From sequence record PZ445406.1: a stretch of 47,149 nt of DNA; one strand, given 5' to 3'. The first letter of the stretch is position 1; each line of letters begins with the position of its first letter. The DNA comes from a phage. The notes below the pieces were generated by a model that was given only the letters and a program-made list of their open reading frames with translations, was not told where the DNA came from and made no database searches. This document shows, piece by piece, positions 1 through 45,064 of this stretch. A program made the position numbers and the translations under genes.

Positions 1-13
1 GCCGTGATAAACT

Positions 14-35
14 AGCCCCTACATGGGGCTTTTTT
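14..35 (+). terminator. intrinsic terminator
   Basis: AGCCCC-tacat-GGGGCT hairpin plus T6. Confidence 0.6.
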
Positions 36-48
36 ATTGGAGAAAAAC

Positions 49-1314
49 ATGGTCAAGACAGACAGCTACGCCAATATCTTTCTAGGCGGCAGTGATGGCA
101 GTGAGATTTACGGAAGTTTACAGAATCAGGCGCCTACAATTCTGGCTTCGCTTTATGCGGATAATGCACTGGTGCGTCGAATTATAGACACAATCCCTGA
201 AACGGCATTGGCGGCAGGATTCCACATTGATGGTATTGATGACGAACCTGCATTCTGGTCACGCTGGGATGACCTGGAAATGACACAGAATATTAACGAT
301 GCCTGGTCATGGGCGAGATTATTCGGTGGAGCGGCAATTGTCGCTATCGTTAAGGACAATAGAGCGCTAACAAGTCCGGTAAGGGAAGGTGCCGAGCTTG
401 AAACTGTTCGCGTTTACGACCGTACTCAAGTAAAAGTGCAGACACGCGAGGAGAATCCCCGCAACGCACGTTTTGGCAAGCCTCTGACCTATCGGATCAC
501 TACTAATGAGAGCGATATGTTCTACGATGTGCACTACAGCCGAATTCACATCATTGACGGAGAGCGAGTACCTAACGTAATGCGTCGACAGAATGATGGC
601 TGGGGCCGTAGCGTTCTTTCCATTGACATCCTTGACTCAATTAAGGATTACACCAAATGCGAACAACTGGCAACTCAGTTGCTGAAGCGTAAGCAGCAAG
701 CGGTCTGGAAAGTAAAAGATTTAGCCTTGTTGTGTGATGATAGCGAAGGGGTTGGTGCTGCCAGATTGCGACTTGCCCAGGTAGATAACAATAGCGGCGT
801 TGGTCAGGCGATTGGCATTGACGCTGAATCTGAAGATTACAGCATTCTAAACTCTGATATTGGCGGGATTGATGCGTTCCTGGATAAGAAGTTTGATAGA
901 ATCGTTGCTCTGAGCGGCATTCATGAAATCATCTTGAAGAACAAGAACGTTGGCGGCGTATCATCAAGCCAGAACACAGCACTTGAGACATTCCACAAGC
1001 TGGTTGACCGCAAGCGCAACTCTGAACTTCTTCCGATTCTTGAGTTCTTAATCCCGTTCATCGTTAACGTTGACGAATGGTCAGTTGAGTTTAATCCTTT
1101 AGCTCAGGAATCAAGCAAGGACAAAGCAGAGATTCTGGAGAAGAACGTAAACAGCATTGCGGCGCTAATTGCAGCTGGCGCTATGGATACTAACGAGGCA
1201 CGTGATACACTACGAACTATCGCGCCAGAGATTAAGATTTCAGATGGCGATATTGACGCTCAACAACAAGAACCACCAGAGGAGGATGTAATTAATGAGC
1301 AAAATCCGCTATGA
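49..1314 (+). CDS. portal protein (putative)
   Basis: First gene after terL; ATG 49 with GGAG SD (track start 37 is TTG); size and position fit a siphovirus portal. Confidence 0.55.
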   Translation: MVKTDSYANIFLGGSDGSEIYGSLQNQAPTILASLYADNALVRRIIDTIPETALAAGFHIDGIDDEPAFWSRWDDLEMTQNINDAWSWARLFGGAAIVAIVKDNRALTSPVREGAELETVRVYDRTQVKVQTREENPRNARFGKPLTYRITTNESDMFYDVHYSRIHIIDGERVPNVMRRQNDGWGRSVLSIDILDSIKDYTKCEQLATQLLKRKQQAVWKVKDLALLCDDSEGVGAARLRLAQVDNNSGVGQAIGIDAESEDYSILNSDIGGIDAFLDKKFDRIVALSGIHEIILKNKNVGGVSSSQNTALETFHKLVDRKRNSELLPILEFLIPFIVNVDEWSVEFNPLAQESSKDKAEILEKNVNSIAALIAAGAMDTNEARDTLRTIAPEIKISDGDIDAQQQEPPEEDVINEQNPL

Positions 1315-2386
1315 CAGCGCAAAGGTGAAAGCCAGATTTGATGAAAACGGCTTTCTGGTTGATACCCCGATTGTTGCTCGCGTCGGGGTGCAAACATACT
1401 ACCTTCCGGACGGCACAGAACGCAGAGAATTTAGACCAGCCTCAGAGGTCTTTAAACCTGATTCTCTGGCTAGTTATCAGGGAAAGCCAATTACCTTAGG
1501 TCATGTGTTTGTTAACGCAGATAATGCTAAAGAGGTCGTTGTAGGTTCGGTATCTGGCTCGGCAATGCGTGAAGATTCAAATGTGATTGTTCCGCTAACT
1601 GTTTACGACAAGGAATCAATCGAGAAGGCCAAGAATGGCATCGCTGGTGAGTTGTCAGTAGGCTACCATACTGTTGATATTGAGTCTAAGGGCTGGGGTA
1701 GCAACGAAACCGGTGAGTATAAGCTGGATGGAGAGTATCAATCACAAGATGAGATTCCTACTGACTGGGTTAGATTTGATGCCCTGCAAACTGAAATTAA
1801 GGTAAACCACGTCGCCCTGGTATATAAAGGTCGCGCTGGTGTGGCCAAACTTAACTTTGACGCTCAACAGGAAAACCCGTATACTACTGACGTTGATATC
1901 AATAAAGAGGATAAACAGGAAATGACAGTTAAAATTAAACTCGACGGCGCGCAGGAATTCGAAGTTGCCACGGAAATCGCTTCTCACATCGAAGCACTGA
2001 ACGCAAAGGCTGACACCGCAATCGCAGAGCGTGATGCGCTGAAAGCTAAAGTAGATGCAATTCCCTCTGAAATCGAGGCAGCCGTAGCTAAAGCTAAAGC
2101 TGATGCTGACGCCCTGGCGGCACTAGTTGCTGTTGCTGCTGAAGCTGGCGTTAAGGCTGATGGTATGGATGCTAAAGGCATTAAAGTTGCTTACGTTAAA
2201 GAAGTCTCCGGCCTTGATGTTTCTGAGAAATCCGACGCATACATCGACGCAGCGTTCGACATTGCCAAAGAATCTGATAAAATGGCTGAAGTACGTAAAG
2301 CGACTACCGCTTCCGACAAATCTGACAGCGCCAATGAGCCTAAGAAATTAGACCCGCGTGCTCGTTTAGCTAAAATCAAGAAATAA
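1295..2386 (+). CDS. head scaffolding protein, possible protease-scaffold fusion
   Basis: GAGGAGG SD; Ala/Lys/Glu-rich coiled-coil C-terminus; sits between portal and capsid genes. Confidence 0.45.
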   Translation: MSKIRYDSAKVKARFDENGFLVDTPIVARVGVQTYYLPDGTERREFRPASEVFKPDSLASYQGKPITLGHVFVNADNAKEVVVGSVSGSAMREDSNVIVPLTVYDKESIEKAKNGIAGELSVGYHTVDIESKGWGSNETGEYKLDGEYQSQDEIPTDWVRFDALQTEIKVNHVALVYKGRAGVAKLNFDAQQENPYTTDVDINKEDKQEMTVKIKLDGAQEFEVATEIASHIEALNAKADTAIAERDALKAKVDAIPSEIEAAVAKAKADADALAALVAVAAEAGVKADGMDAKGIKVAYVKEVSGLDVSEKSDAYIDAAFDIAKESDKMAEVRKATTASDKSDSANEPKKLDPRARLAKIKK

Positions 2387-2398
2387 GGAGTTATAAAC

Positions 2399-2893
2399 AT
2401 GGCAATTCGTTCTGTAGCACTCGCTGGTATGATTTCTGATACCTCTCTGTATAACATCGACGGCGCTTGTGTGGTTGGCGGCGCGACTGCAATTCCAGCT
2501 GGGACCGCGGTTTCTGTTACCTCAGCCCAGCCGGTTGATGGTCACAAGATTGTTACTGCTGCTAACGTAGCGGCGGACCCGGCAACCGGCGCAGGCGCTC
2601 TCGGCGTTGTAGTTCGCTCTCATTATGATACTCCTGACGGCACCGCGCGAGTAAATGAGGCAGTGAACGTTCTCACTGCTGGCAGAATCTGGATGCGAAC
2701 CACGCTTTCTTCAGCACCCACCTTTGGAGCTTCAGTGTTGATTAACGAAGCTGGTGTCGTGGCAGCTGGTGGCGTAGCAACTGGCTGGACATTCGCAGGT
2801 GGATTTGTGACTGGTTACACTGGTACTGACCCAATTCAACCTGGCCAATCAGTTGATGGCGCGCTTGTTGAAGTCCAGGTTAAGCAGAAGTAA
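2399..2893 (+). CDS. head structural or decoration protein (putative)
   Basis: AAGGAG SD; Gly/Ala/Thr/Val-rich; immediately upstream of major capsid gene; terminator follows. Confidence 0.4.
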   Translation: MAIRSVALAGMISDTSLYNIDGACVVGGATAIPAGTAVSVTSAQPVDGHKIVTAANVAADPATGAGALGVVVRSHYDTPDGTARVNEAVNVLTAGRIWMRTTLSSAPTFGASVLINEAGVVAAGGVATGWTFAGGFVTGYTGTDPIQPGQSVDGALVEVQVKQK

Positions 2894-3981: not shown

Positions 3982-4045
3982 ACGTCTGTACCAAATGGAT
4001 TTGTTGGGTTATAATCACCAAATCAGATAAACAAAGGAGACAAAA

Positions 4046-4291
4046 ATGATTCGCTTAGAACACACTGGCGCCTGCCTAATCGTTTACAAGGGTGAGAAAT
4101 ATTTGCCTGGTGACACTTTCGAGGTTGATGCCATTTGCGACGGTCTTAAGCGTTTAATCGCAGAGGGTAAGCTCACGATTGAGGGTGACGCCAAAACAAC
4201 CAAGCAGATCGCGCAAGAAATTGTTAGCAAGAAAAAGCGCAAAGAACCGAAAACCATCTCCGAGGCTGAGGCTGGCAACGAGTACAAATAA
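4046..4291 (+). CDS. hypothetical small protein with Lys-rich C-terminus
   Basis: AAGGAG SD; bracketed by two hairpin terminators inside the structural operon. Confidence 0.5.
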   Translation: MIRLEHTGACLIVYKGEKYLPGDTFEVDAICDGLKRLIAEGKLTIEGDAKTTKQIAQEIVSKKKRKEPKTISEAEAGNEYK

Positions 4292-4731: not shown

Positions 4732-5102
4732 TGAACTACAACGAAATCGAATCAATCACTCGCGCTGGCATTAACTTCTTTAGTGATTCTAATGGCGTTT
4801 ACGAGATGAGTACAGGCGCTGGATATGTTGAAGTCGTTAACGGTGTTGAGGTTAATATTCCAGCAAGAATATTCCAGCTAAAGGGCTTGGTGAGAGAAAT
4901 CAAGACGCGCGATATCGATGGCGATTTTATCCAGTTTGGCGATAAGCGTGGAATATTCACAGCTCAGGTGGAAATCAAGCAGGGTTATCAGATCAAAGTT
5001 GATGGCGAGACTTTTGTTGTTGTTGACCCGCGCCCCGTTAAACCAACAGGTACAGTGGTTGGTTATAGACCAATCCTTCGTAGGGTGGCTACTTATGGCT
5101 AG
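4731..5102 (+). CDS. head-tail joining protein (putative)
   Basis: ATG overlaps upstream stop (translational coupling); synteny. Confidence 0.4.
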   Translation: MNYNEIESITRAGINFFSDSNGVYEMSTGAGYVEVVNGVEVNIPARIFQLKGLVREIKTRDIDGDFIQFGDKRGIFTAQVEIKQGYQIKVDGETFVVVDPRPVKPTGTVVGYRPILRRVATYG

Positions 5103-18342: not shown

Positions 18343-18386
18343 ATGATAACTCATCCCTGCGGATTGTCTTTAGCAATTCGTGCTAT
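18343..18386 (-). promoter_or_regulatory. phage-type promoter module (drives lipoprotein gene)
   Basis: Minus strand ATAGCACGAATTGCTA, 22-bp spacer, TATCAT, leader CCACATCGAAACGAG. Confidence 0.5.
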
Positions 18387-19059: not shown

Positions 19060-19442
19060 TTTACAATCCTCTCTCGTTGTTTGTGCGACTAACTATACCA
19101 GGTTTTGCGTCTGAGTTTTAGCTATTCGTGCTATTGCATACACGTAACAGATGTAACTTGATGTATACAATCTAATCCGCGGAAAATGATATACGCCAAG
19201 TTACGCATGGTTACGCTATATTTACATTAAAATATCTATATATATCAACCATTTACTCTTATTATTATTATTATATATATTACTGTGTATATCATGTAAC
19301 TACCTCTATAGAGTGTTCCGGTTGCAATTTTAATATCATGTGGATTTATACAGTGTTGCACGGTGCTATACCAATGCACCCTCAGCAATAAATGATATAC
19401 ACGATATACACACTAGTTACATTGAGCTATAGCTGATCTGAG
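19060..19442. repeat. AT-rich divergent control region A with iterons and (TTA)5 microsatellite
   Basis: No credible ORF; tandem GATATACAC x2 at 19394-19411; (TTA)5 at 19259-19273; 19-mer ATATCTATATATATCAACC at 19232-19250 shared with region B. Confidence 0.6.
19092..19134 (-). promoter_or_regulatory. phage-type promoter module (leftward from region A)
   Basis: Minus strand ATAGCACGAATAGCTA, 21-22 bp spacer, TATAGT. Confidence 0.5.
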
Positions 19443-22491: not shown

Positions 22492-22920
22492 ATGCACGTA
22501 ATTACTGGTCAGATTCGCCGCGCTCCGTTCACTAAAGAAGGTCAAAACGCCAATGGTACATGGAAAATGTTTGCTGTTGATTTGAGTGAGAGATACAAGG
22601 ATAAAGATGGGCAGACTCAGTATAGTAACTATCGCGCAGTCTTCTTCGCGAAAGAGTCTATGCTGGATTGGTATAACGAGGCATTTCAAGAAGGTAAAGT
22701 TGTTAGCGTTAGCGCAGATACTCTTTCTGTTGATGTTCGTGATAAAGATGGTAAGACTTACGTAACAATCAACATGAACAACCCTAGACTTGAGTTTAGT
22801 CAGCGAGGTGAAAGTGGTGTTCAGCAGCAACAGCCAAGACAACAGCAGCAACAACCGCAAGCACAACAGCAGAAGCTTCAGCCGCAGCAGCAGCAATTTG
22901 ATGACTCCATTCCATTCTAA
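22492..22920 (+). CDS. ssb: single-stranded DNA-binding protein
   Basis: Gln/Pro-rich linker and acidic C-terminal tip DDSIPF resembling E. coli SSB DDDIPF. Confidence 0.7.
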   Translation: MHVITGQIRRAPFTKEGQNANGTWKMFAVDLSERYKDKDGQTQYSNYRAVFFAKESMLDWYNEAFQEGKVVSVSADTLSVDVRDKDGKTYVTINMNNPRLEFSQRGESGVQQQQPRQQQQQPQAQQQKLQPQQQQFDDSIPF

Positions 22921-22952: not shown

Positions 22953-25481
22953 TTAACCTATCTTAGTATAAGTCCATTGGTATGTTGCAGCGCCCTGTGC
23001 AGTTATCCCGACAGTTCTTCCGCTTACATCCATTGAAGTGAAAACGCCAGTTTTTGTAATTGTTATTGATGATGTTGTACCATCAAAAAGTACATCAGCA
23101 ATTACACTATAGTTAGCCCCGGCCCCAGTAACCCAGGTCGAAACCTTGTATAAACCTGCGTTGTTTGGCAACTCAAAAAGACCAGTTGAAACATTAGCCT
23201 GAACAGCCATAGCGCCCTTTCCGGTGTATACACCGTCAGTTTTAAGTCCTAATGATGAATACGTTTGCTTATAACCGCCAACGATCATGCCACCCATTGG
23301 TTCAGTAAACCAGTTCACATTACCCTGACTAACAACCGATATAGCAGGAGAGCCACCTTTAGCTGACTGGAACCTACCGCTCAAAACGTCAATTCTAGAT
23401 GTTGAATCCTGGGCGTAGATAGTTACAGGATACCCACCAGAACCAGTGTAAACCAAGCCGTTATCATTAATATCATCTTCAGATGAGTCAATGATTACAT
23501 GGGAAGTTCCAGACGCCTTGATGTACGAAACAACACCACCGGAACCAGCGCCTGTTGTTCTAACTTCATTCTTCCATGATGTTAGGCCTGAAATCCTGCC
23601 ATTTGAGTTATTAAACCTAATCAGGCAACAATCCTGAGAACCGTTCGTGTCAATAATGTTACCTTCGACGTCCATTCCCAGTATGTTTACGCTATGACTG
23701 TTAATAAAGTTAATTCCAGCACCACCGTAAGAACCAGATGTTGATGATATATTGCTGGCATCCATTGCGCAGTTAATCATCGTCACGCTCATCACTGAAC
23801 CAAATTCATAAGGTGAAATGCAATCTGATGCGTAACAAGTCTCAAGCAATATTGTCGTCCCAGTCGCCTTGATGAATCCCGTCCTGCAATTCCTGGCCCA
23901 AACATTCTGTAACTTAGTTTGGTATGTTCCAGTGGTATCCGTGTAACAGCCCCACGCTCCATGTACCGTGCAATCTTTGATGCATGAATTTTCCAGACCA
24001 GTTGCAGAACCAACATTAGAAACGAAGTTAAATGCTATCTTTTGATCATTCCCTGGTGCTGAGGTAGGCGTAGTGCCTGGGTTATAAAAAATGTAAAGTC
24101 CCTCAATAAACACTTGATACATTCTTATGTTTTGCGCATCACCCTGAACCAGGGCAAACAGGTTAATGTTCCCATCAACTGAGATAAATGCTTGCGCCCT
24201 GTTAATTTGGTCTGTCCCCTCCCCAATAATTCTTGTGCTGTTCCCAATCCTTACCGTCCTGTTAATAAACATAAAACCTTTTGGTATGTATACAGTTTTA
24301 CCGGTATTAACTGCCGCCTGAAGCGCAACTGAGTCAAGTGACTCATTAAGGTTTGATGCAAATGGATAAACAGCCCGTGCAGCCTCAATTGTAGAGAATT
24401 TAGATGACAGCGGAACTAAAGTGCCATTGTTTGTAGCACCAAAATCCATGACGTTAACAAAGTCACCAAGTTTACTTTCCTTGCTCCTTTCTACAGATGA
24501 GGTCAATGTCGATTTGTAATTCATCGAACTGAATCGTGATTGAGCCTCAGTCGTTGAATAAACATCAAGCAGACCCCTTACCCTTAAGGCGCTGGATCCA
24601 CCAGTAGCTCCATCTCCACCAGGAACGCTTAGAAGTTCCCTTACATAAAAATTCCTAGAACCAGTAGCTCCAGTAATGGTAATTTCCGCAACCCTAAAAA
24701 CGGCGTTTGAGGTTGTAGAAGGAGAAATTCTTACTACGTTACTTCCATTAACACCACGCGTCGCAAGAACATCAATACAAATAGTAGTGTTTGTCGCCGG
24801 GAACATTGAACTTAAGGCTGACGGAATGTTAACCATGTTTGCAATTTTGCACTGGTAGCTACCACCTGAATAAAATTGCATTGTCTGCCAGTCAAGGGAT
24901 GTAAGCAGTGGTGTTGTAGTACTTCCTATGCCGTGTTCTGCAAAGTAAGCCACTGCGGCCGTATTCCCAGCTGCATTTATTGCGTTAACGGTTCTGTTGT
25001 ATGAGTTCAGTGCATTATTGCTAGCACCAACGGCAGTTGATGCACTTTCTGCGGCAGAAATTTGACTAGCAAGTGCCTCTGCAGCTCCGGTAGTTGACTG
25101 AGTTGCTAACTGTTCAAATCGAGGCCAATCGAAGGTGTCTTGACCAATAAATTGCAGCAATCCTTCGATGGATGTCTCCTTTGACTGATAGTAACGCAGA
25201 GTCTCAGCAACATTCTGAGCTAAACCCGGAGCGGTAATCCCATCGTGCGCAAGAATCGCGTAACCAGTTCCGGCAGGAACAGTTTCAGAGTTAGGGTTAT
25301 AAACATTAATCTTAGTGTCGCTGACAATTTCCGAGATGGCGTAGATCTTTATCGGGTTAGTTTTGAAAATGATAGTAGCACCTACGCGAATCAGTGTAAG
25401 CGGTGCTTTCCATGTTGTACCAACACCAGTTACCTCTCCATTCGCGGCTAGTGACGCTGTTCCTAAGTCATAAATTGCCAT
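22953..25481 (-). CDS. tail fiber / tailspike protein
   Basis: About 840 aa, Thr/Ser/Gly/Asn-rich; probable ATG at 25481 (track start 25511 is GTG). Confidence 0.6.
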   Translation of the reverse strand: MAIYDLGTASLAANGEVTGVGTTWKAPLTLIRVGATIIFKTNPIKIYAISEIVSDTKINVYNPNSETVPAGTGYAILAHDGITAPGLAQNVAETLRYYQSKETSIEGLLQFIGQDTFDWPRFEQLATQSTTGAAEALASQISAAESASTAVGASNNALNSYNRTVNAINAAGNTAAVAYFAEHGIGSTTTPLLTSLDWQTMQFYSGGSYQCKIANMVNIPSALSSMFPATNTTICIDVLATRGVNGSNVVRISPSTTSNAVFRVAEITITGATGSRNFYVRELLSVPGGDGATGGSSALRVRGLLDVYSTTEAQSRFSSMNYKSTLTSSVERSKESKLGDFVNVMDFGATNNGTLVPLSSKFSTIEAARAVYPFASNLNESLDSVALQAAVNTGKTVYIPKGFMFINRTVRIGNSTRIIGEGTDQINRAQAFISVDGNINLFALVQGDAQNIRMYQVFIEGLYIFYNPGTTPTSAPGNDQKIAFNFVSNVGSATGLENSCIKDCTVHGAWGCYTDTTGTYQTKLQNVWARNCRTGFIKATGTTILLETCYASDCISPYEFGSVMSVTMINCAMDASNISSTSGSYGGAGINFINSHSVNILGMDVEGNIIDTNGSQDCCLIRFNNSNGRISGLTSWKNEVRTTGAGSGGVVSYIKASGTSHVIIDSSEDDINDNGLVYTGSGGYPVTIYAQDSTSRIDVLSGRFQSAKGGSPAISVVSQGNVNWFTEPMGGMIVGGYKQTYSSLGLKTDGVYTGKGAMAVQANVSTGLFELPNNAGLYKVSTWVTGAGANYSVIADVLFDGTTSSITITKTGVFTSMDVSGRTVGITAQGAATYQWTYTKIG

Positions 25482-27125: not shown

Positions 27126-29120
27126 ATGTTACCTATCGAGAAGCTGGTTGCAAACTTTGATAAAGAAAGAATTAAACAGATTCAGAAAGATTACCAGTTT
27201 GGCGAGATAACCCCTTACGAGTTCCAGTGCGTTACATTTGATGCAATTGGGAAGGCTATTGGCAAGTATGAGGCCCCATTTATCGCAGATCTTTCTGTGT
27301 CTGCTGGTAAGACAATCATTCTTGCCATGATTGGTAAGCGCATGGAGCAATTGGGATTGCCTTACATGGTTCTATCTCGCCAGTCAGAGATAATCAGCCA
27401 GAACTCAGAGGAACTTCGTAACTTCGGCATCCGTAACAGCGTATATTGCGCCGGCCTTAACGTTAAATCAGTTTATTACCCAACCATAGTTGCTAGTGAG
27501 GGCACGGCAGCCAACGGCTTGTTTAAGGGGCTTGGTGACTACGTCCCTGCAGTTATCGCAATAGACGAATGTCACATGGTCGATCACATGGATATTGTAG
27601 AAGCTGAGGAGAACGAAGAAACATTTGAGCAAATGAGCACAAAGAAAGGAGAAATGGTATTTAAAGATGGCGTTAATACCGGATTGCTTGGCACTGGTCG
27701 TGCGCAGTACACGCTAATCATCACCGAAATGAAAAGGCGATGCCGCGAGAAGTACGGTCGCGAGCTTAGAATTTTTGGCCTAACTGGCAGCCCGTATCGA
27801 AATAACGATCACATAGTGGTTAGCAATCCAAATGTTCGTGGATTCTGGCGCAAGACAGTGATTCAGGTGCCAACTAATTACCTTGTTGATTTGGGATTTG
27901 TTGTGCCTACTGTTTATGGCGAGGTTGGCGATTTGGGTTACGATCTTAGTGAGTTTGTGCCCGATGGGAACGATGGCGTGAAGGACTTTGGCAAGAAAGA
28001 AATGGATGCAATGGAAGAGAAAATCCACCAAAGCCAATCCATGACGCAAAAGATTATGCAATTTGCTGCAAAGTTCATGGAGACTCGTAACTCGGCTCTT
28101 GTGACATGTTCTGGTAAGCGTCACTGCGAGGAAGCGGCAGCGTCGCTTCCTGATGGTGTGACATGGGCTATAGTAACTGACTCTACAGGTGAGAAAAAGC
28201 GCCGTGAGATTCTGGCTGATGCATATGAAGGTAAGTATAAATTCATATTTCAGATAGGTTGCCTCACAACCGGCGTTAACGTTCCACCATGGGATACATC
28301 AATCATTCTGCGCAAAGTTGGTAGTATCACGCTTCTTATTCAGCTTTTGGGTAGAGGAATGCGAATTCTTAAGAAGAAGCATAAGGAAATGGGAATGGTT
28401 AAGGATGATCACGTGGTGCTTGACTTTGCTGGTACTCTTGATGACATGGCAGAATTGTACTTTGACCCAATCATAGAAGAAGTTCAGGACCAGAAGTTCA
28501 AATCGTCACGAAAAAGTGGCGACAATCCAAGGGTATGTCCTGCCTGCGGCTATGAGAACTCTCCTTTTGCTCGTCGCTGCAATAACGTAATTGATGGGAA
28601 ACGTTGTGAGCATTTTTTTAAATTTCGCTTGTGCGAAGACATAGAGGACCAGCAGACAAAAGTTACTATTAAGAAAGGTTGTGGTGAGAAGAATGATATT
28701 GCCGCTAAAAACTGCAGGTGCTGTGGCGAGATGCTTATTGACCCTAACGCAAAGTTGTCTGGAAAGATGTATCGACAAGGGGATTGGTTGAGAGTTTACG
28801 GATTCAGTATTGGGTTAACTAAAAACCAAACCGGAATCGTTGCTCGATATGAAATCATGGCTCACAGCGGGGATAGGTTTGTTGCTTACGAAACTTTCTT
28901 TCCAGAGAGTGATCATCGCGTCTGCTCTGTAAAGTGGAAGGCGTTTTGCCAAACCCACATCGCCAACAAAACAGAAGCATTTCGCATCGGAAGACTTCGA
29001 AACACTAAAATGATTATGACCAATGCAAGTCAATTCCGTGAACCTATGAGAGTGACGCACAGAAAAAACCAGAAAGGTCAGGATATTATCGCAAATAAAT
29101 CTTTTACTATGGAGGATTGA
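27126..29120 (+). CDS. SF2 DNA helicase with C-terminal zinc ribbons
   Basis: Walker A-like SAGKT, DECH box, multiple CxxC pairs at C-terminus. Confidence 0.65.
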   Translation: MLPIEKLVANFDKERIKQIQKDYQFGEITPYEFQCVTFDAIGKAIGKYEAPFIADLSVSAGKTIILAMIGKRMEQLGLPYMVLSRQSEIISQNSEELRNFGIRNSVYCAGLNVKSVYYPTIVASEGTAANGLFKGLGDYVPAVIAIDECHMVDHMDIVEAEENEETFEQMSTKKGEMVFKDGVNTGLLGTGRAQYTLIITEMKRRCREKYGRELRIFGLTGSPYRNNDHIVVSNPNVRGFWRKTVIQVPTNYLVDLGFVVPTVYGEVGDLGYDLSEFVPDGNDGVKDFGKKEMDAMEEKIHQSQSMTQKIMQFAAKFMETRNSALVTCSGKRHCEEAAASLPDGVTWAIVTDSTGEKKRREILADAYEGKYKFIFQIGCLTTGVNVPPWDTSIILRKVGSITLLIQLLGRGMRILKKKHKEMGMVKDDHVVLDFAGTLDDMAELYFDPIIEEVQDQKFKSSRKSGDNPRVCPACGYENSPFARRCNNVIDGKRCEHFFKFRLCEDIEDQQTKVTIKKGCGEKNDIAAKNCRCCGEMLIDPNAKLSGKMYRQGDWLRVYGFSIGLTKNQTGIVARYEIMAHSGDRFVAYETFFPESDHRVCSVKWKAFCQTHIANKTEAFRIGRLRNTKMIMTNASQFREPMRVTHRKNQKGQDIIANKSFTMED

Positions 29121-29940: not shown

Positions 29941-30134
29941 TGAATACTATCTATACTGCTAAATTCTACGAATCACGCAAAACCGGTTACCAGTATGAAT
30001 TAGTAATTACAGATGACGGTTATTTTCTTGATGATGGTGAGGGGTACTCATTCGAAGTTAGCCCAACCTACAAGGATGATTTAGAGACTGTTAAAAACGT
30101 ATTCGGCGAAAAATTTGATGAGGTGTCAGAATGA
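29941..30134 (+). CDS. hypothetical small protein, paralog A2
   Basis: ATG 29941 after phage-type promoter; last 22 aa identical to A1. Confidence 0.55.
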
Positions 30135-36858: not shown

Positions 36859-37006
36859 TTTGTGCCTTTTCTATCGCCTTGAGCATAATTTCATGACTCT
36901 CAAGCAAGTCTTCTCGGAACCAGTCTCCGCAAGGCCAACCCTTTCCGCTGTAGGCACTTATGACCTCAAGATCAAAATAATTTATCTCAGATGGTAATAG
37001 CATCAT
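36842..37006 (-). CDS. hypothetical 54-aa protein
   Basis: Hand-translated; ATGA overlap with upstream gene; stop lies in TGCTAA half of promoter palindrome. Confidence 0.3.
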   Translation of the reverse strand: MMLLPSEINYFDLEVISAYSGKGWPCGDWFREDLLESHEIMLKAIEKAQNSTNC

Positions 37007-37599: not shown

Positions 37600-37931
37600 T
37601 TTTTCAACTCCGCTTTCTGAACACTTGAAATCTCACCTTTGCTTAACAACCGCCCTTTACTGAACCGATGACAAATGAACTTAACGGAAAAGTAGTCACT
37701 CGGATCGAGCGCCACACGCTTTTCCATGAAGACCTTGCGGCTTGAGGCCAGAAATACTTTGCTGCCTTTCTTACCCACTCTTGATCGCAACAGCTCATAG
37801 GTTGAATCGACAAACTGATACTTAAAGCGCCAGGCTCCGTAAGCCCACAAATACATCCGGCCAGACGGAGTCATGAACCTGGTCTTTCCGTCAGTTGCGT
37901 CCTTCCAGACAACTCCGTAAACAATGCTCAT
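37596..37931 (-). CDS. hypothetical protein
   Basis: First leftward gene from control region B; phage-type promoter and AAAGGAG SD. Confidence 0.5.
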   Translation of the reverse strand: MSIVYGVVWKDATDGKTRFMTPSGRMYLWAYGAWRFKYQFVDSTYELLRSRVGKKGSKVFLASSRKVFMEKRVALDPSDYFSVKFICHRFSKGRLLSKGEISSVQKAELKK

Positions 37932-37964
37932 TTATTTCTCCTTTCCTCTCGTTTCTAGGACTGA

Positions 37965-38009
37965 ATCATAGCAACCAACCACTGATAGGTCATTAGCAAA
38001 AAGTGCTAT
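37965..38009 (-). promoter_or_regulatory. phage-type promoter module (leftward from region B)
   Basis: Minus strand ATAGCAC-tttt-TGCTAA, 22-bp spacer, TATGAT. Confidence 0.5.
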
Positions 38010-38569
38010 TCGTTAGATTTATGGATTGTTGCAGATATTGAAATTATTATCATGATTATTGCACATATAGCAATATTGCTTCAGATGCAATGATGTTTTT
38101 GATTGTTGCGGATTGAGCAATGAAGTGGTGGGGGAGTGAATGAAAGATGGATGGACTAACATACAAGTTGATTTTGACTCCCGATAACCTATCCTGTGGT
38201 ATACACGTAACCGCCGTATACTCAGTGTCGTCACAAAAGTTAGTGGACACTAACCTACGTTTTTTACGCCAATATACACTCGATATACAATATAATATCT
38301 ATATATATCAACCTTTTACTTTATTATTATTATTATTATTATATATATGTATACCGTGTATACCGGTCATGGATGGAATAGTTGATATGTTCCGCGCAGA
38401 TATTCTGACACTTGTCAGAAAGGGATGACATTGTAGGAATAAAAAGGCACATATATAGGAAATATCCTCAAAAATCTGTACACAGTGGATACGGCAGGTT
38501 TACAACCAGTGCCGGAGCGGGCTTGAGAGGCAAAATGCGTATCCATGATAAAATATACTAAAATATACA

Positions 38570-38598
38570 TTGACCGACACGTAAATAGGTGGCAATAT
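38570..38598 (+). promoter_or_regulatory. sigma70-like promoter (rightward from region B)
   Basis: TTGACC, 17-18 bp spacer, CAATAT/AATATA; leader CACTGAAACGAAG follows. Confidence 0.4.
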
Positions 38599-38638
38599 AG
38601 CAATCACTGAAACGAAGTAAACCAAACGAGGTATTAAC

Positions 38639-39187
38639 ATGCAGAAAGTAACACTAGGTGAAGTTATCCGCGAGATGGTTCGTAACGCGATGGCGTCTGA
38701 TGGTGGTGAATTCAAAGTTCCGGTTAGCCAGATATTCAAGCTGGTTCGCGGGAAAGAATACCCTGAGATGCGGTATGATGAGGATACCAGTGAGATCCTA
38801 AACCTTGCAGATAGGGCGATGCCGGAACTAAAGAACTCATACATTTATAATACGGTTTCGAGAATGACCGAGCTTCGAGATGCAAACAAGCGAGCGCGCT
38901 ATAAGTTCATCTGGATTGATGAGGATGGCGAGCAGGTAAGCCCTGGTAGCTTCGATGGTGATGGCGCCGATAAATACCTGGTAATATACATTGAGGACGG
39001 CGCGCACTGGACTGGAAGTCGCGAGAAGAAAAAGCAGGAATCGGAGAGGGAGGCAGCAACCATTGAAAGGTTTAAATCTCGATTGCTCAAGCTGTCACCT
39101 AGCGTCGCTGGGCTGGAAGGTGATGAACTTAAGGGTGCTGTTGCAATGATTAATGCTTATCAGGAAATGATTAAGGAAACCAAATAA
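38639..39187 (+). CDS. hypothetical protein (first rightward early gene)
   Basis: sigma70-like promoter and conserved leader upstream. Confidence 0.5.
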   Translation: MQKVTLGEVIREMVRNAMASDGGEFKVPVSQIFKLVRGKEYPEMRYDEDTSEILNLADRAMPELKNSYIYNTVSRMTELRDANKRARYKFIWIDEDGEQVSPGSFDGDGADKYLVIYIEDGAHWTGSREKKKQESEREAATIERFKSRLLKLSPSVAGLEGDELKGAVAMINAYQEMIKETK

Positions 39188-44557: not shown

Positions 44558-45064
44558 ATGAGCAAAGCAGCATTAAAGATGGGTGAGGGAAATTTCAAGG
44601 CACTCTACAACAAGAAGTATGGCGATATTGCTATGGTGGCAATCAACCGTAAGTATACGCCTGAGGAGGTTTTCGATTTCGCAGTGAGATACTTCTCCTG
44701 GGCTGAGGGTGAGGCAATTAAAGCCATTGAGACGGCGGCATTCCGGGGTGTGGTTAGTGAGAGCTTAGTGCACAAGCCTAGAGTGTTCACATTAACCGGC
44801 CTGGCACTATTCATGGGTGTTAACATCAATAGATTCGCTCGTTGGCGTGCTGAGGCTGGATACTCTGACGTGATGGAATTCATTGATAACGTAATCTACG
44901 AACAGAAATATCAGCTCTGCGTTGCAGGCATTATCAACTCCACCATTGTTGGTAAAGAGCTTGGCATTGATAAGCCGCAGGAGATCACCATTAGCAACAA
45001 CTCCACAGCCAACGACGTTGATAGCATGAAGGAAGCGCTTGAGTCTGTTATTGGTAAGTTGTAG
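44558..45064 (+). CDS. terminase small subunit (putative)
   Basis: 168 aa; position upstream of terL with an HNH gene between; call by synteny only. Confidence 0.45.
   Translation: MSKAALKMGEGNFKALYNKKYGDIAMVAINRKYTPEEVFDFAVRYFSWAEGEAIKAIETAAFRGVVSESLVHKPRVFTLTGLALFMGVNINRFARWRAEAGYSDVMEFIDNVIYEQKYQLCVAGIINSTIVGKELGIDKPQEITISNNSTANDVDSMKEALESVIGKL

Follow-up and report, generated by a model that had tools for sequence, protein, structure and literature searches.

A probable genome-end control region in the T1-like Escherichia phage JeanPiccard, with a candidate pac site, predicted outward promoters and a duplicated AT-rich module

The stretch of DNA analyzed here, referred to as the window, comprises 47,149 nucleotides (PZ445406.1) and represents the entire genome of Escherichia phage JeanPiccard (Bas02; Drexlerviridae, Braunvirinae; T1-like). 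It is 100% identical to MZ501080 and is rotated with respect to that record, such that a window position equals the record position minus 2592. The subject of this work is region B (37932-38638), which an earlier sequence-only reading had described as the largest noncoding stretch, of some 700 bp, and which at 707 bp is indeed the largest gap of the deposited annotation. It is flanked on its left by bas02_0061, the first gene of a leftward small-gene operon that ends in a DUF3987 helicase, and on its right by bas02_0062, which encodes a DUF7174 protein and is the first gene of a rightward small-gene operon leading to the terminase genes. The second-largest gap, region A (19060-19442, 383 bp), is located between a Dcm-like methyltransferase gene and recombination genes. 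Homologs of region B were identified in about 130 phage records, nearly all of them E. coli/Shigella Drexlerviridae of several subfamilies, and almost no record annotates any feature inside the gap. The sequence features listed in the earlier reading are all present, at most one base from where they had been placed, and a second origin, a pac (packaging) region or an early-promoter hub had been proposed as their function. Our analysis indicates that region B is probably a conserved genome-end control region of T1-like phages, composed of a pac site, outward promoters at both edges and an AT-rich module.

Region B was aligned with 18 homologs at first and with 20 later. Relative to ten distant relatives, identity amounts to 96% in a 21-nt repeat near the left edge, 84% at 38013-38130 and 81-82% in the AT-rich core, compared with 40-50% in the intervening blocks. 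Because conservation is so strongly block-wise, region B is considered a mosaic of discrete functional elements and not one element (Table 1).

Table 1. Elements of region B, in window coordinates (TRF, Tandem Repeats Finder; IHF, integration host factor)
Element	Position	Strand	Basis or remark
Leader and predicted core promoter of the leftward operon (bas02_0061 onward)	37932..37989	-	Promoter scan
Copy of the Drexlerviridae 21-nt intergenic repeat, AATAGCACTTTTTGCTAATGA	37990..38012	-	TLS consensus aaATAGCACnnnTTGnTAAAA
Dyad-symmetric ATTGC/GCAAT array, eight units	38024..38125	both orientations	Proposed TerS pac recognition site
Predicted pac cleavage zone (GAATGAAAGATGG / ATGGACTAACATACAAGTTGATTTTGA / C)	38150..38180	+	Alignment of relatives' termini; packaging rightward
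Left flank of AT module: GGTATACACGTAAC and CGTATAC motifs, palindrome GTTAGTGGACACTAAC (38239-38254), phased repeats	38198..38292	+	
AT-rich core AATATCTATATATATCAACCTTTTACT with IHF-consensus match, (TTA)7 (38321-38341), (AT)4	38293..38348	.	
Right flank of AT module: TGTATACCG x2, 9-bp period	38348..38365	-	TRF
Palindrome TTCTGACAcTTGTCAGAA (38403-38420), then TTGTAGGAAT (38431-38440)	38403..38440	.	Alignment
Predicted rightward promoter of the small-gene operon that starts with bas02_0062	38549..38605	+	Sequence, TRF
Leader; GAGG ribosome-binding site at 38628-38631, spaced 7 nt from the bas02_0062 ATG	38606..38638	+	

The best-conserved stretch of the gap that is longer than the 21-nt repeat is an array of eight ATTGC/GCAAT units, which retains 84% conservation even in distant relatives whose neighbouring DNA shows about 45% identity. 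The unit cores (TTGC/GCAA) are located at 38029, 38040, 38059, 38070, 38076, 38087, 38106 and 38117, the unit consensus being roughly AT(T/C)(A/G)TTGC(A), and both the spacing (11-19-11-6-11-19-11) and the unit orientations are mirrored about the centre at 38074/38075. Of 50 positions, 28 are complementary across the dyad in JeanPiccard, and the family consensus reaches 32, as compared with a mean of about 14 in shuffled sequences and of 12.5 (standard deviation 3.1) genome-wide, and the array ties for the best 100-bp dyad. The sole other 100-bp segment with a symmetry of 28/50 lies at 25099-25198 (centre 25148), inside the lateral tail fibre gene. In the array region ATTGC was found five times, against 0.48 expected. 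The unit at 38037-38048 is mutated in JeanPiccard, where it reads ATTGAAATTATT where 16 of the 17 aligned relatives, in which this unit with its core at 38040 is present, carry ATTGCAATGATT.

Three 13-mers of the form GATT(G/A)TTGC(A/G)(G/C)AT, previously taken for replication iterons, were found to be part of this array. Exact matches are located at 38024-38036 (the first copy having been placed at 38025), 38054-38066 and 38101-38113, and none elsewhere in the window; when one mismatch is allowed there are five matches, against 0.61 expected, a number reached by 0 of 100 shuffles. While the copies themselves are thus real, the iteron interpretation does not hold, as the units occur in both orientations with dyad symmetry instead of forming direct repeats of the same orientation, and are absent from region A.

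The genome ends of several relatives map to the array or to its right side. Position 1 of T1 (NC_005833) aligns to window position 38075, inside the equivalent 700-bp divergent gap, and this record is opened at the pac-proximal end, as it begins with a terminal 'repeat_region 1..2800' (2.8 kb). Position 1 of Rtp aligns to 38069, and the 13-mer array coincides with both record starts. T1 retains GATTGTTGC units exactly at its record start, while it is only 31-45% identical through most of the remaining gap, as calculated outside the 21-nt repeat and the AT module. The pac of TLS was mapped with restriction enzymes, which revealed a submolar pac fragment (PMC11447400); the TLS record (NC_009540) likewise begins in this gap, with 195 bp separating its start, which is located within GATTG/GATTT repeats just past the 21-nt repeat, from the last leftward gene.

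Termini derived from sequencing reads are available for three relatives, namely two Braunvirinae (MSK and SU57) and one Rogunavirinae (UDF157lw). The record of UDF157lw was re-organized at the terminus identified by PhageTerm (PMC10838988), and its start aligns to window position 38152. For MSK, a PhageTerm peak was reported at 36,862 on the forward strand only (PMC8421802), which agrees with rightward packaging and aligns to 38159. Both phages were assigned by PhageTerm to the headful/pac type (PMC10838988; PMC8421802). The start of SU57 was set from PhageTerm results and an abrupt change in coverage (PMC7718038) and aligns to about 38177. Together with the record start of Rao1, which aligns to 38151, these read-based termini fall within 27 bp and 25-50 bp to the right of the array. 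Fragmentation bias is an unlikely cause, because they are located outside the AT-rich core. Preferred ends on one strand, as expected near a pac site, were thus found next to the array, by alignment to relatives alone.

The second line of evidence concerns the small terminase, TerS, which is encoded by bas02_0001 (window 44558-45064). It matches the Pfam family PF16677 (GP3_package) with an E-value of 4.8e-12 and a score of 46.4 bits, above the cutoff of 29.4, shares about 27% identity with P22-like gp3, and can therefore be classed as a pac-type small terminase. The numbers of records that contain the array (about 130) and a TerS of at least 60% identity (about 121) are similar. Given the positions of the termini and the P22 gp3-type TerS, the left third of region B (38013-38180), which comprises the array and the cut zone, is most likely the pac site, from which packaging would proceed rightward. 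The proposal of a pac region can hence be retained in a narrower form, for this third only. The arrangement of the sequence, the degree to which it is conserved, the places where relatives' termini map and the family to which TerS belongs are direct observations. We infer that a TerS oligomer would bind the eight-unit array of about 100 bp (38024-38125), that each concatemer would first be cut by the large terminase 25-50 bp to the right of the array, at approximately 38150-38180, and that headful packaging would then run rightward through the small-gene operon toward the terminase and structural genes.

The location of pac has already been published at the family level, as the authors of the SU57 study place it in this untranslated region (PMC7718038). 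For T1, ATATA repeats have been named as pac in a second-hand statement attributed to the Rtp paper (PMC8421802), and the TLS pac was assigned on the basis of a P22-like AGATTT hexamer (PMC11447400). In the literature we found no description of the eight-unit dyad array as a likely recognition site, nor of read-based termini that converge 25-50 bp to the right of it. A P22-like pac core was also considered: the 8-mer AGATTTAT at 38015 is conserved, yet it is uninformative because the JeanPiccard genome contains seven copies.

Several points weigh against this assignment. The cut site of JeanPiccard is deduced from the termini of relatives alone, and the T1 and Rtp starts (38069-38075) differ by about 80-100 bp from the read-based termini (38151-38177); these two older starts were perhaps placed at the palindrome by visual inspection. 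Several further records with a start in this region were probably co-linearized with T1 or Rtp and are then not independent. The starts of ESCO41, XT34, FP, OzMSK, IMM-001, Rogue1, CEB_EC3a and ZL19 (window 38000-38197) were not counted for this possible co-linearization. Furthermore, the MSK coordinate is assumed to refer to the deposited record, and the Rao1 position is a record start. Finally, the array could instead be an operator set for the adjacent leftward promoter. According to this alternative, a phage regulator such as the Cro-like helix-turn-helix protein bas02_0036 would bind the array to switch that promoter, the array would not be a terminase site, and a pac signal at some other place in the gap would account for the nearby termini. 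The start of the array is indeed 12 bp away from the 21-nt repeat and promoter, on their upstream side, its dyad symmetry is typical of operators, and the phage encodes a 157-aa protein with a sub-threshold P22_Cro-like helix-turn-helix match. However, eight units over 100 bp far exceed the usual size of an operator, the other divergent promoter regions contain no similar unit array, the exact 13-mer occurs here alone, and the genome ends of seven relatives are located in the array or at most 52 bp to its right. The GATTGTTGC units that T1 has kept at its record start, in a gap that has otherwise diverged, point in the same direction. We therefore consider an operator function of the array quite unlikely.

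Parts of the window were also noted in PQ433353.1, the record of Enterococcus phage vB_EfeBG-143 (a 143-kb Herelleviridae), at 4001-4158 and 4916-5014. A noisy copy of window positions 38008-38178 is located in a locus of 35% GC and includes a near-exact copy of the cut zone, about 65 nt long, that ends at GATTTTGA; the same record contains 100 bp from the SSB region (window 22534-22634) at 87% identity. A T1-like phage sequenced alongside was probably assembled into this record, making it chimeric.

The edges of region B are occupied by predicted promoters. The leftward one consists of a -35-like element, ATGACC (37993-37988), and a TG-extended -10 element, TATGAT (37970-37965), which is found at the same alignment columns in 16 of 18 homologs, in a leader that is just 43% conserved. 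At about -37 to -58 of this promoter lies the 21-nt repeat, the -10 element being some 30 nt downstream of it. The repeat block is 95% conserved across 17 homologs, and its core (37993-38009, in the minus-strand sense) matches ATAGCAC-N3-TTG-N-TAA with 0 mismatches. The core is located 62-78 nt, and the full repeat up to 81 nt, upstream of the bas02_0061 start codon. A 21-nt intergenic direct repeat has been described for TLS (PMC11447400), and the JeanPiccard copy shares the properties of the TLS type, namely an intergenic position, the orientation of transcription and a distance of about 76 nt to the start codon. Genome-wide, TTAGC-N5-GTGCTAT, the core as written against transcription, was counted 23 times, against 4.4 expected, and is always oriented with the transcription of the downstream gene; copies are located, for example, at 18370, 19118, 25505, 29538, 29864, 36842, 37993, 39711, 41055 and 42617. 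The repeat looks like a family-wide promoter or activator element.

At the right edge, two copies of TAAAATATAC (38549-38568) occupy the position of an UP element and are followed by the -35 element TTGACC (38570-38575), a 17-nt spacer and the extended -10 element TGgCAATAT (38590-38598). In nine of 18 homologs a -35/-10 pair occupies these alignment columns, an example being TTGATA-N17-TAATAT in Rtp. Hexamers of the sigma-70 type, spaced by 16-18 bp and kept in position in homologs, were thus identified at both gap edges, and the designation early-promoter hub agrees with them. Host sigma-70 promoters would accordingly be predicted to fire outward from both edges, the leftward one lying under the 21-nt repeat. 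A literature search retrieved neither transcript-start nor replication-origin data for Drexlerviridae. Between the AT module and the rightward promoter, the two halves of the palindrome TTCTGACAcTTGTCAGAA change together in relatives, where it reads TTCCTACAcTTGTAGGAA; it was considered as a repeated operator and dismissed, as it is present in a single copy in the genome.

The third component is the AT-rich module of about 100 bp, which occurs once in region B and once in region A. The module order is the same in both regions of eight phages: three to four WTACRC repeats with a 10-11 bp period come first, followed by AATATCTATATATATCAACC-W-TTTAC, which matches the IHF consensus, then by (TTA)n and (TA)n, and finally by two TGTATAYC repeats with a 9-bp period that are inverted with respect to the left-hand repeats. 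The phased repeats of region B are TTTACGC, ATATACAC and ATATACAA (38263-38290, 10-11 bp period). As had been noted before, AATATACAC and GATATACAA are present at 38271-38279 and 38282-38290, the tandem GTATACC copies correspond to two copies of TGTATACCG at 38348-38365, and region B contains (TTA)7(AT)4 where region A has five TTA copies; TRF reports (TTA)7.3 at 38321-38342, followed by (AT)4, and (TTA)5.3 at 19259-19274. The block shared by both regions was also recovered, as the 19-mer ATATCTATATATATCAACC, which occurs only at 19232 and 38295 (0.02 expected). Since TGTATACCG reads TATACA on the minus strand, the right flank faces the repeats of the left flank, and a perfect 10-bp inverted repeat (38198-38207 and 38355-38364) encloses the module. 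In JeanPiccard, T1 and TLS alike, no hexamer is more enriched in the AT-core flanks than TATACA. The IHF consensus WATCAANNNNTTR is matched at 38306-38318 and 19243-19255, with ten matches in the genome against 3.2 expected; this match is absent at the AT-core position of Jk06, AHP42 and T1.

Both modules contain the least stable DNA of the genome. In JeanPiccard, the least stable 60-bp duplexes are located at 38289-38348 (z 5.5) and in region A (z 5.1), the next one having a z of 3.2. The corresponding segments are 214-273 and 30009-30068 in T1 (z 5.8 and 5.5; next 3.8) and 216-275 and 28823-28882 in TLS (z 5.1 and 5.1; next 3.4), and these two segments are at syntenic positions in T1 and TLS. 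Region A, a homolog of which is present in about 130 records, possesses the same module, with phased TTACGC repeats, an IHF-consensus core, (TTA)5 and inverted TGTATA/TGTAAC repeats; in addition, a leftward copy of the 21-nt repeat is located at 19118 and a GATATACAC x2 tandem at 19394-19411. A LexA-box reading of TACTGTGTATATCATG in region A was discarded because, on inspection by eye, the CAG half is missing. The twin AT modules were not found described in the literature.

The AT core is conserved at 81-87%. The copy number of (ATT)n varies from 4 to 9 among the 19 homologs having the tract, so that the tract slips yet is always kept; T1 has a T-run and an AT-rich block at this position instead. 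Such variation, together with the loss of one ATTGC unit in JeanPiccard, would be expected if the repeats and the microsatellite were neutral, strain-specific noise in a spacer between divergent operons. This view is already contradicted by the conservation pattern, in which blocks with 81-96% conservation adjoin blocks with 40-50%. The region is moreover found in about 130 records across subfamilies, the twin AT modules hold their positions in T1 and TLS, and the enrichment statistics for the 13-mer, the 19-mer, ATTGC and the dyad speak against chance. As far as such comparisons can tell, neutral noise is extremely improbable.

With respect to function, the module contains many promoter-like hits, the best conserved of them being leftward: the promoter scan identified the minus-strand sequence TATACA-N16-AATAAT twice, with the -10 element inside the trinucleotide tract, and such leftward sites are positionally conserved in 10-12 of 18 homologs. 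Our best guess is that the AT module functions as two strong early promoters facing each other, the -10 hexamers of which would lie inside the trinucleotide tract, an arrangement proposed to make promoter function tolerant of 3-bp slippage; the module may double as an unwinding element. Four observations weigh against a promoter pair. Promoter-like matches are cheap in AT-rich DNA, the rightward sites of the module are positionally conserved in just 6-7 of 18 homologs, a module promoter would give untranslated leaders of 190-300 nt, and in region B it would be redundant given the rightward promoter at 38570-38598.

The long leaders and the placement of region A in TLS favour something more than a plain promoter, and a replication origin, or a bipartite origin formed by regions A and B, may be envisaged instead. 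In this model the inward-facing TATACA/TTACGC repeats would be recognized by a phage protein and the core would be bent by IHF, while melting of the (TTA)n/(AT)n tract would allow the phage helicase and primase to be loaded, similar to P4 ori+crr or SPP1 oriL+oriR. Consistent with this possibility, the modules contain the two least stable duplexes of JeanPiccard, T1 and TLS, at syntenic positions in three subfamilies; short repeats with a 10-11 bp phase are present on one side and inverted copies on the other, and the core has an IHF-consensus match. In TLS, the region A copy has a rightward gene on either side and is preceded by a terminator-like hairpin, so that a leftward promoter role is not needed there. 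The phage gene products further include a P4-alpha-like primase zinc ribbon, a DUF3987 helicase and a superfamily 2 (SF2) helicase, and the origin of T1-like phages has been stated as not found (PMC11447400; PMC7718038).

On the other hand, the repeats are just 6-8 bp long and resemble -35 hexamers, and AT-rich DNA of low stability is equally typical of strong early phage promoters. The Pfam scan detected the primase zinc ribbon, Helicase_C and DUF3987, and recognized no initiator. The DnaA box TTWTNCACA has 0 matches on both strands of the 47-kb genome, as compared to 5.3 expected (standard deviation 2.1), and region B contains no cluster of GATC or CCWGG of the type seen in oriC or P1 pac. 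GC skew was examined as an origin marker and rejected, as it merely follows gene orientation and the direction of transcription genome-wide. The phased 6-8-bp repeats adjoin the least stable duplex of the genome, and these features fit an origin and a promoter alike. An origin function of the AT modules is accordingly possible, if doubtful. The "second origin" of the sequence-only reading would in that case apply, tentatively, to the AT module and not to the 13-mers. That the modules at 19190-19300 and 38198-38365 are the replication origins of T1-like phages, perhaps as a two-site system like P4 ori/crr, appears somewhat unlikely on the features at hand. If true, the region B module, about 150 bp from the pac cut, would physically couple the initiation of replication and packaging at the genome end.

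Candidates for hidden genes and RNAs were also evaluated. An open reading frame (ORF) of 93 aa (38147-38428) was rejected, as it crosses the (TTA)n tract and stretches that have indels of non-multiples of three in relatives; a 15-codon ORF at 38140 (MKDGWTNIQVDFDSR) is missing in CJ19, GaoY1 and T1; and a 40-aa coding sequence over the ATTGC array is annotated in one relative only, BEK6. Rfam searches at E<=1 over 37700-38900 returned no non-coding RNA match, and the right half of region B, which includes the palindrome at 38403-38420, folds as RNA no better than shuffled sequences (z -0.6). GATC is found 63 times in the 47-kb genome and 0 times in region B, the number reported for TLS being 254, and CCWGG is found 88 and 0 times, respectively; JeanPiccard encodes both a Dcm-like and an N6-adenine methyltransferase. 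The gap of Rtp (AM156909, 45750-46219 plus 1-545) measures 1015 bp as compared to the usual length of about 700 bp, the extra length being an insertion of about 300 bp at the left edge that bears a second copy of the 21-nt repeat. Region B is also carried, at 86-91% identity, by MG065688 (Campylobacter phage A110b) and PP134917 (Pseudomonas phage PsgS01F), for which the host labels are probably wrong or the lysates contaminated.

The T1-like phages (Drexlerviridae) frequently contaminate laboratories and fermentations, act as generalized transducers and are candidates for therapy. Their pac signal has so far been undefined at the sequence level. A defined terminase-recognition array of about 100 bp and a mapped cut zone would permit genome records to be opened consistently, help to predict which foreign DNA is transduced, and make engineered plasmid packaging possible. 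As to the origin, or alternatively the strongest early promoters, the twin AT modules provide two specific candidates.

Region B shows both parallels with and differences from known systems. P22 packages by a headful mechanism from a preferred site with imprecise cuts, and its pac, an asymmetric sequence of 22 bp, is contained in the terS gene. The TerS of JeanPiccard belongs to the same Pfam family, PF16677, as that of P22/Sf6-type phages, whereas its candidate site is about 100 bp long, dyad-symmetric, repetitive and located 6.4 kb upstream of terS; no short asymmetric site in terS similar to GAAGATTTATCTGAAGTCGTTA was found, and only AGATTTAT is in common. In SPP1 pac (pacL-pacC-pacR), lambda cosB (R sites and the IHF site I1) and P1 pac (hexamers around the cut), multiple short TerS-binding repeats are located beside and not at the cleavage point, optionally with a site for a host bending protein. 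The layout in JeanPiccard, with repeats beside the predicted cut, appears by analogy closer to SPP1 pacL/pacC or lambda cosB/cosN than to P22. Unlike in these systems, there is no conserved repeat set to the right of the cut, where the block is 45-56% conserved. A methylation control as in P1 is not expected, because region B has no GATC sites, and the IHF-consensus match, at a distance of 150 bp from the cut, forms part of the duplicated AT module.

Another set of similarities concerns origins. P4 ori/crr and SPP1 oriL/oriR are two-site phage origins, and T4 ori(uvsY) and the T7 primary origin combine a promoter with an AT-rich unwinding element. In common with these systems, the genome contains two copies of a module in which short repeats accompany an easily melted AT-rich core, and it encodes a P4-alpha-like primase domain. 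However, its repeats are shorter than and unlike the P4 type I iterons, and an initiator with an origin-binding domain was not recognized. The 21-nt repeat of TLS, aaATAGCACnnnTTGnTAAAA, has an exact core match in JeanPiccard, yet it represents a small part of region B. The closest counterpart is the pac/left-end region of T1 and TLS, which is the same divergent gap of about 700 bp between leftward and rightward small-gene operons, with the same 21-nt repeat at its left edge and, in both phages, an AT-rich core about 215 bp to the right of the record start. T1 differs in having only about four or five recognizable units, and TLS in having GATTG/GATTT repeats in place of ATTGC. Region B is thus a better-resolved example of the T1/TLS genome-end/pac region, which would gain interest if the AT modules prove to be origins.

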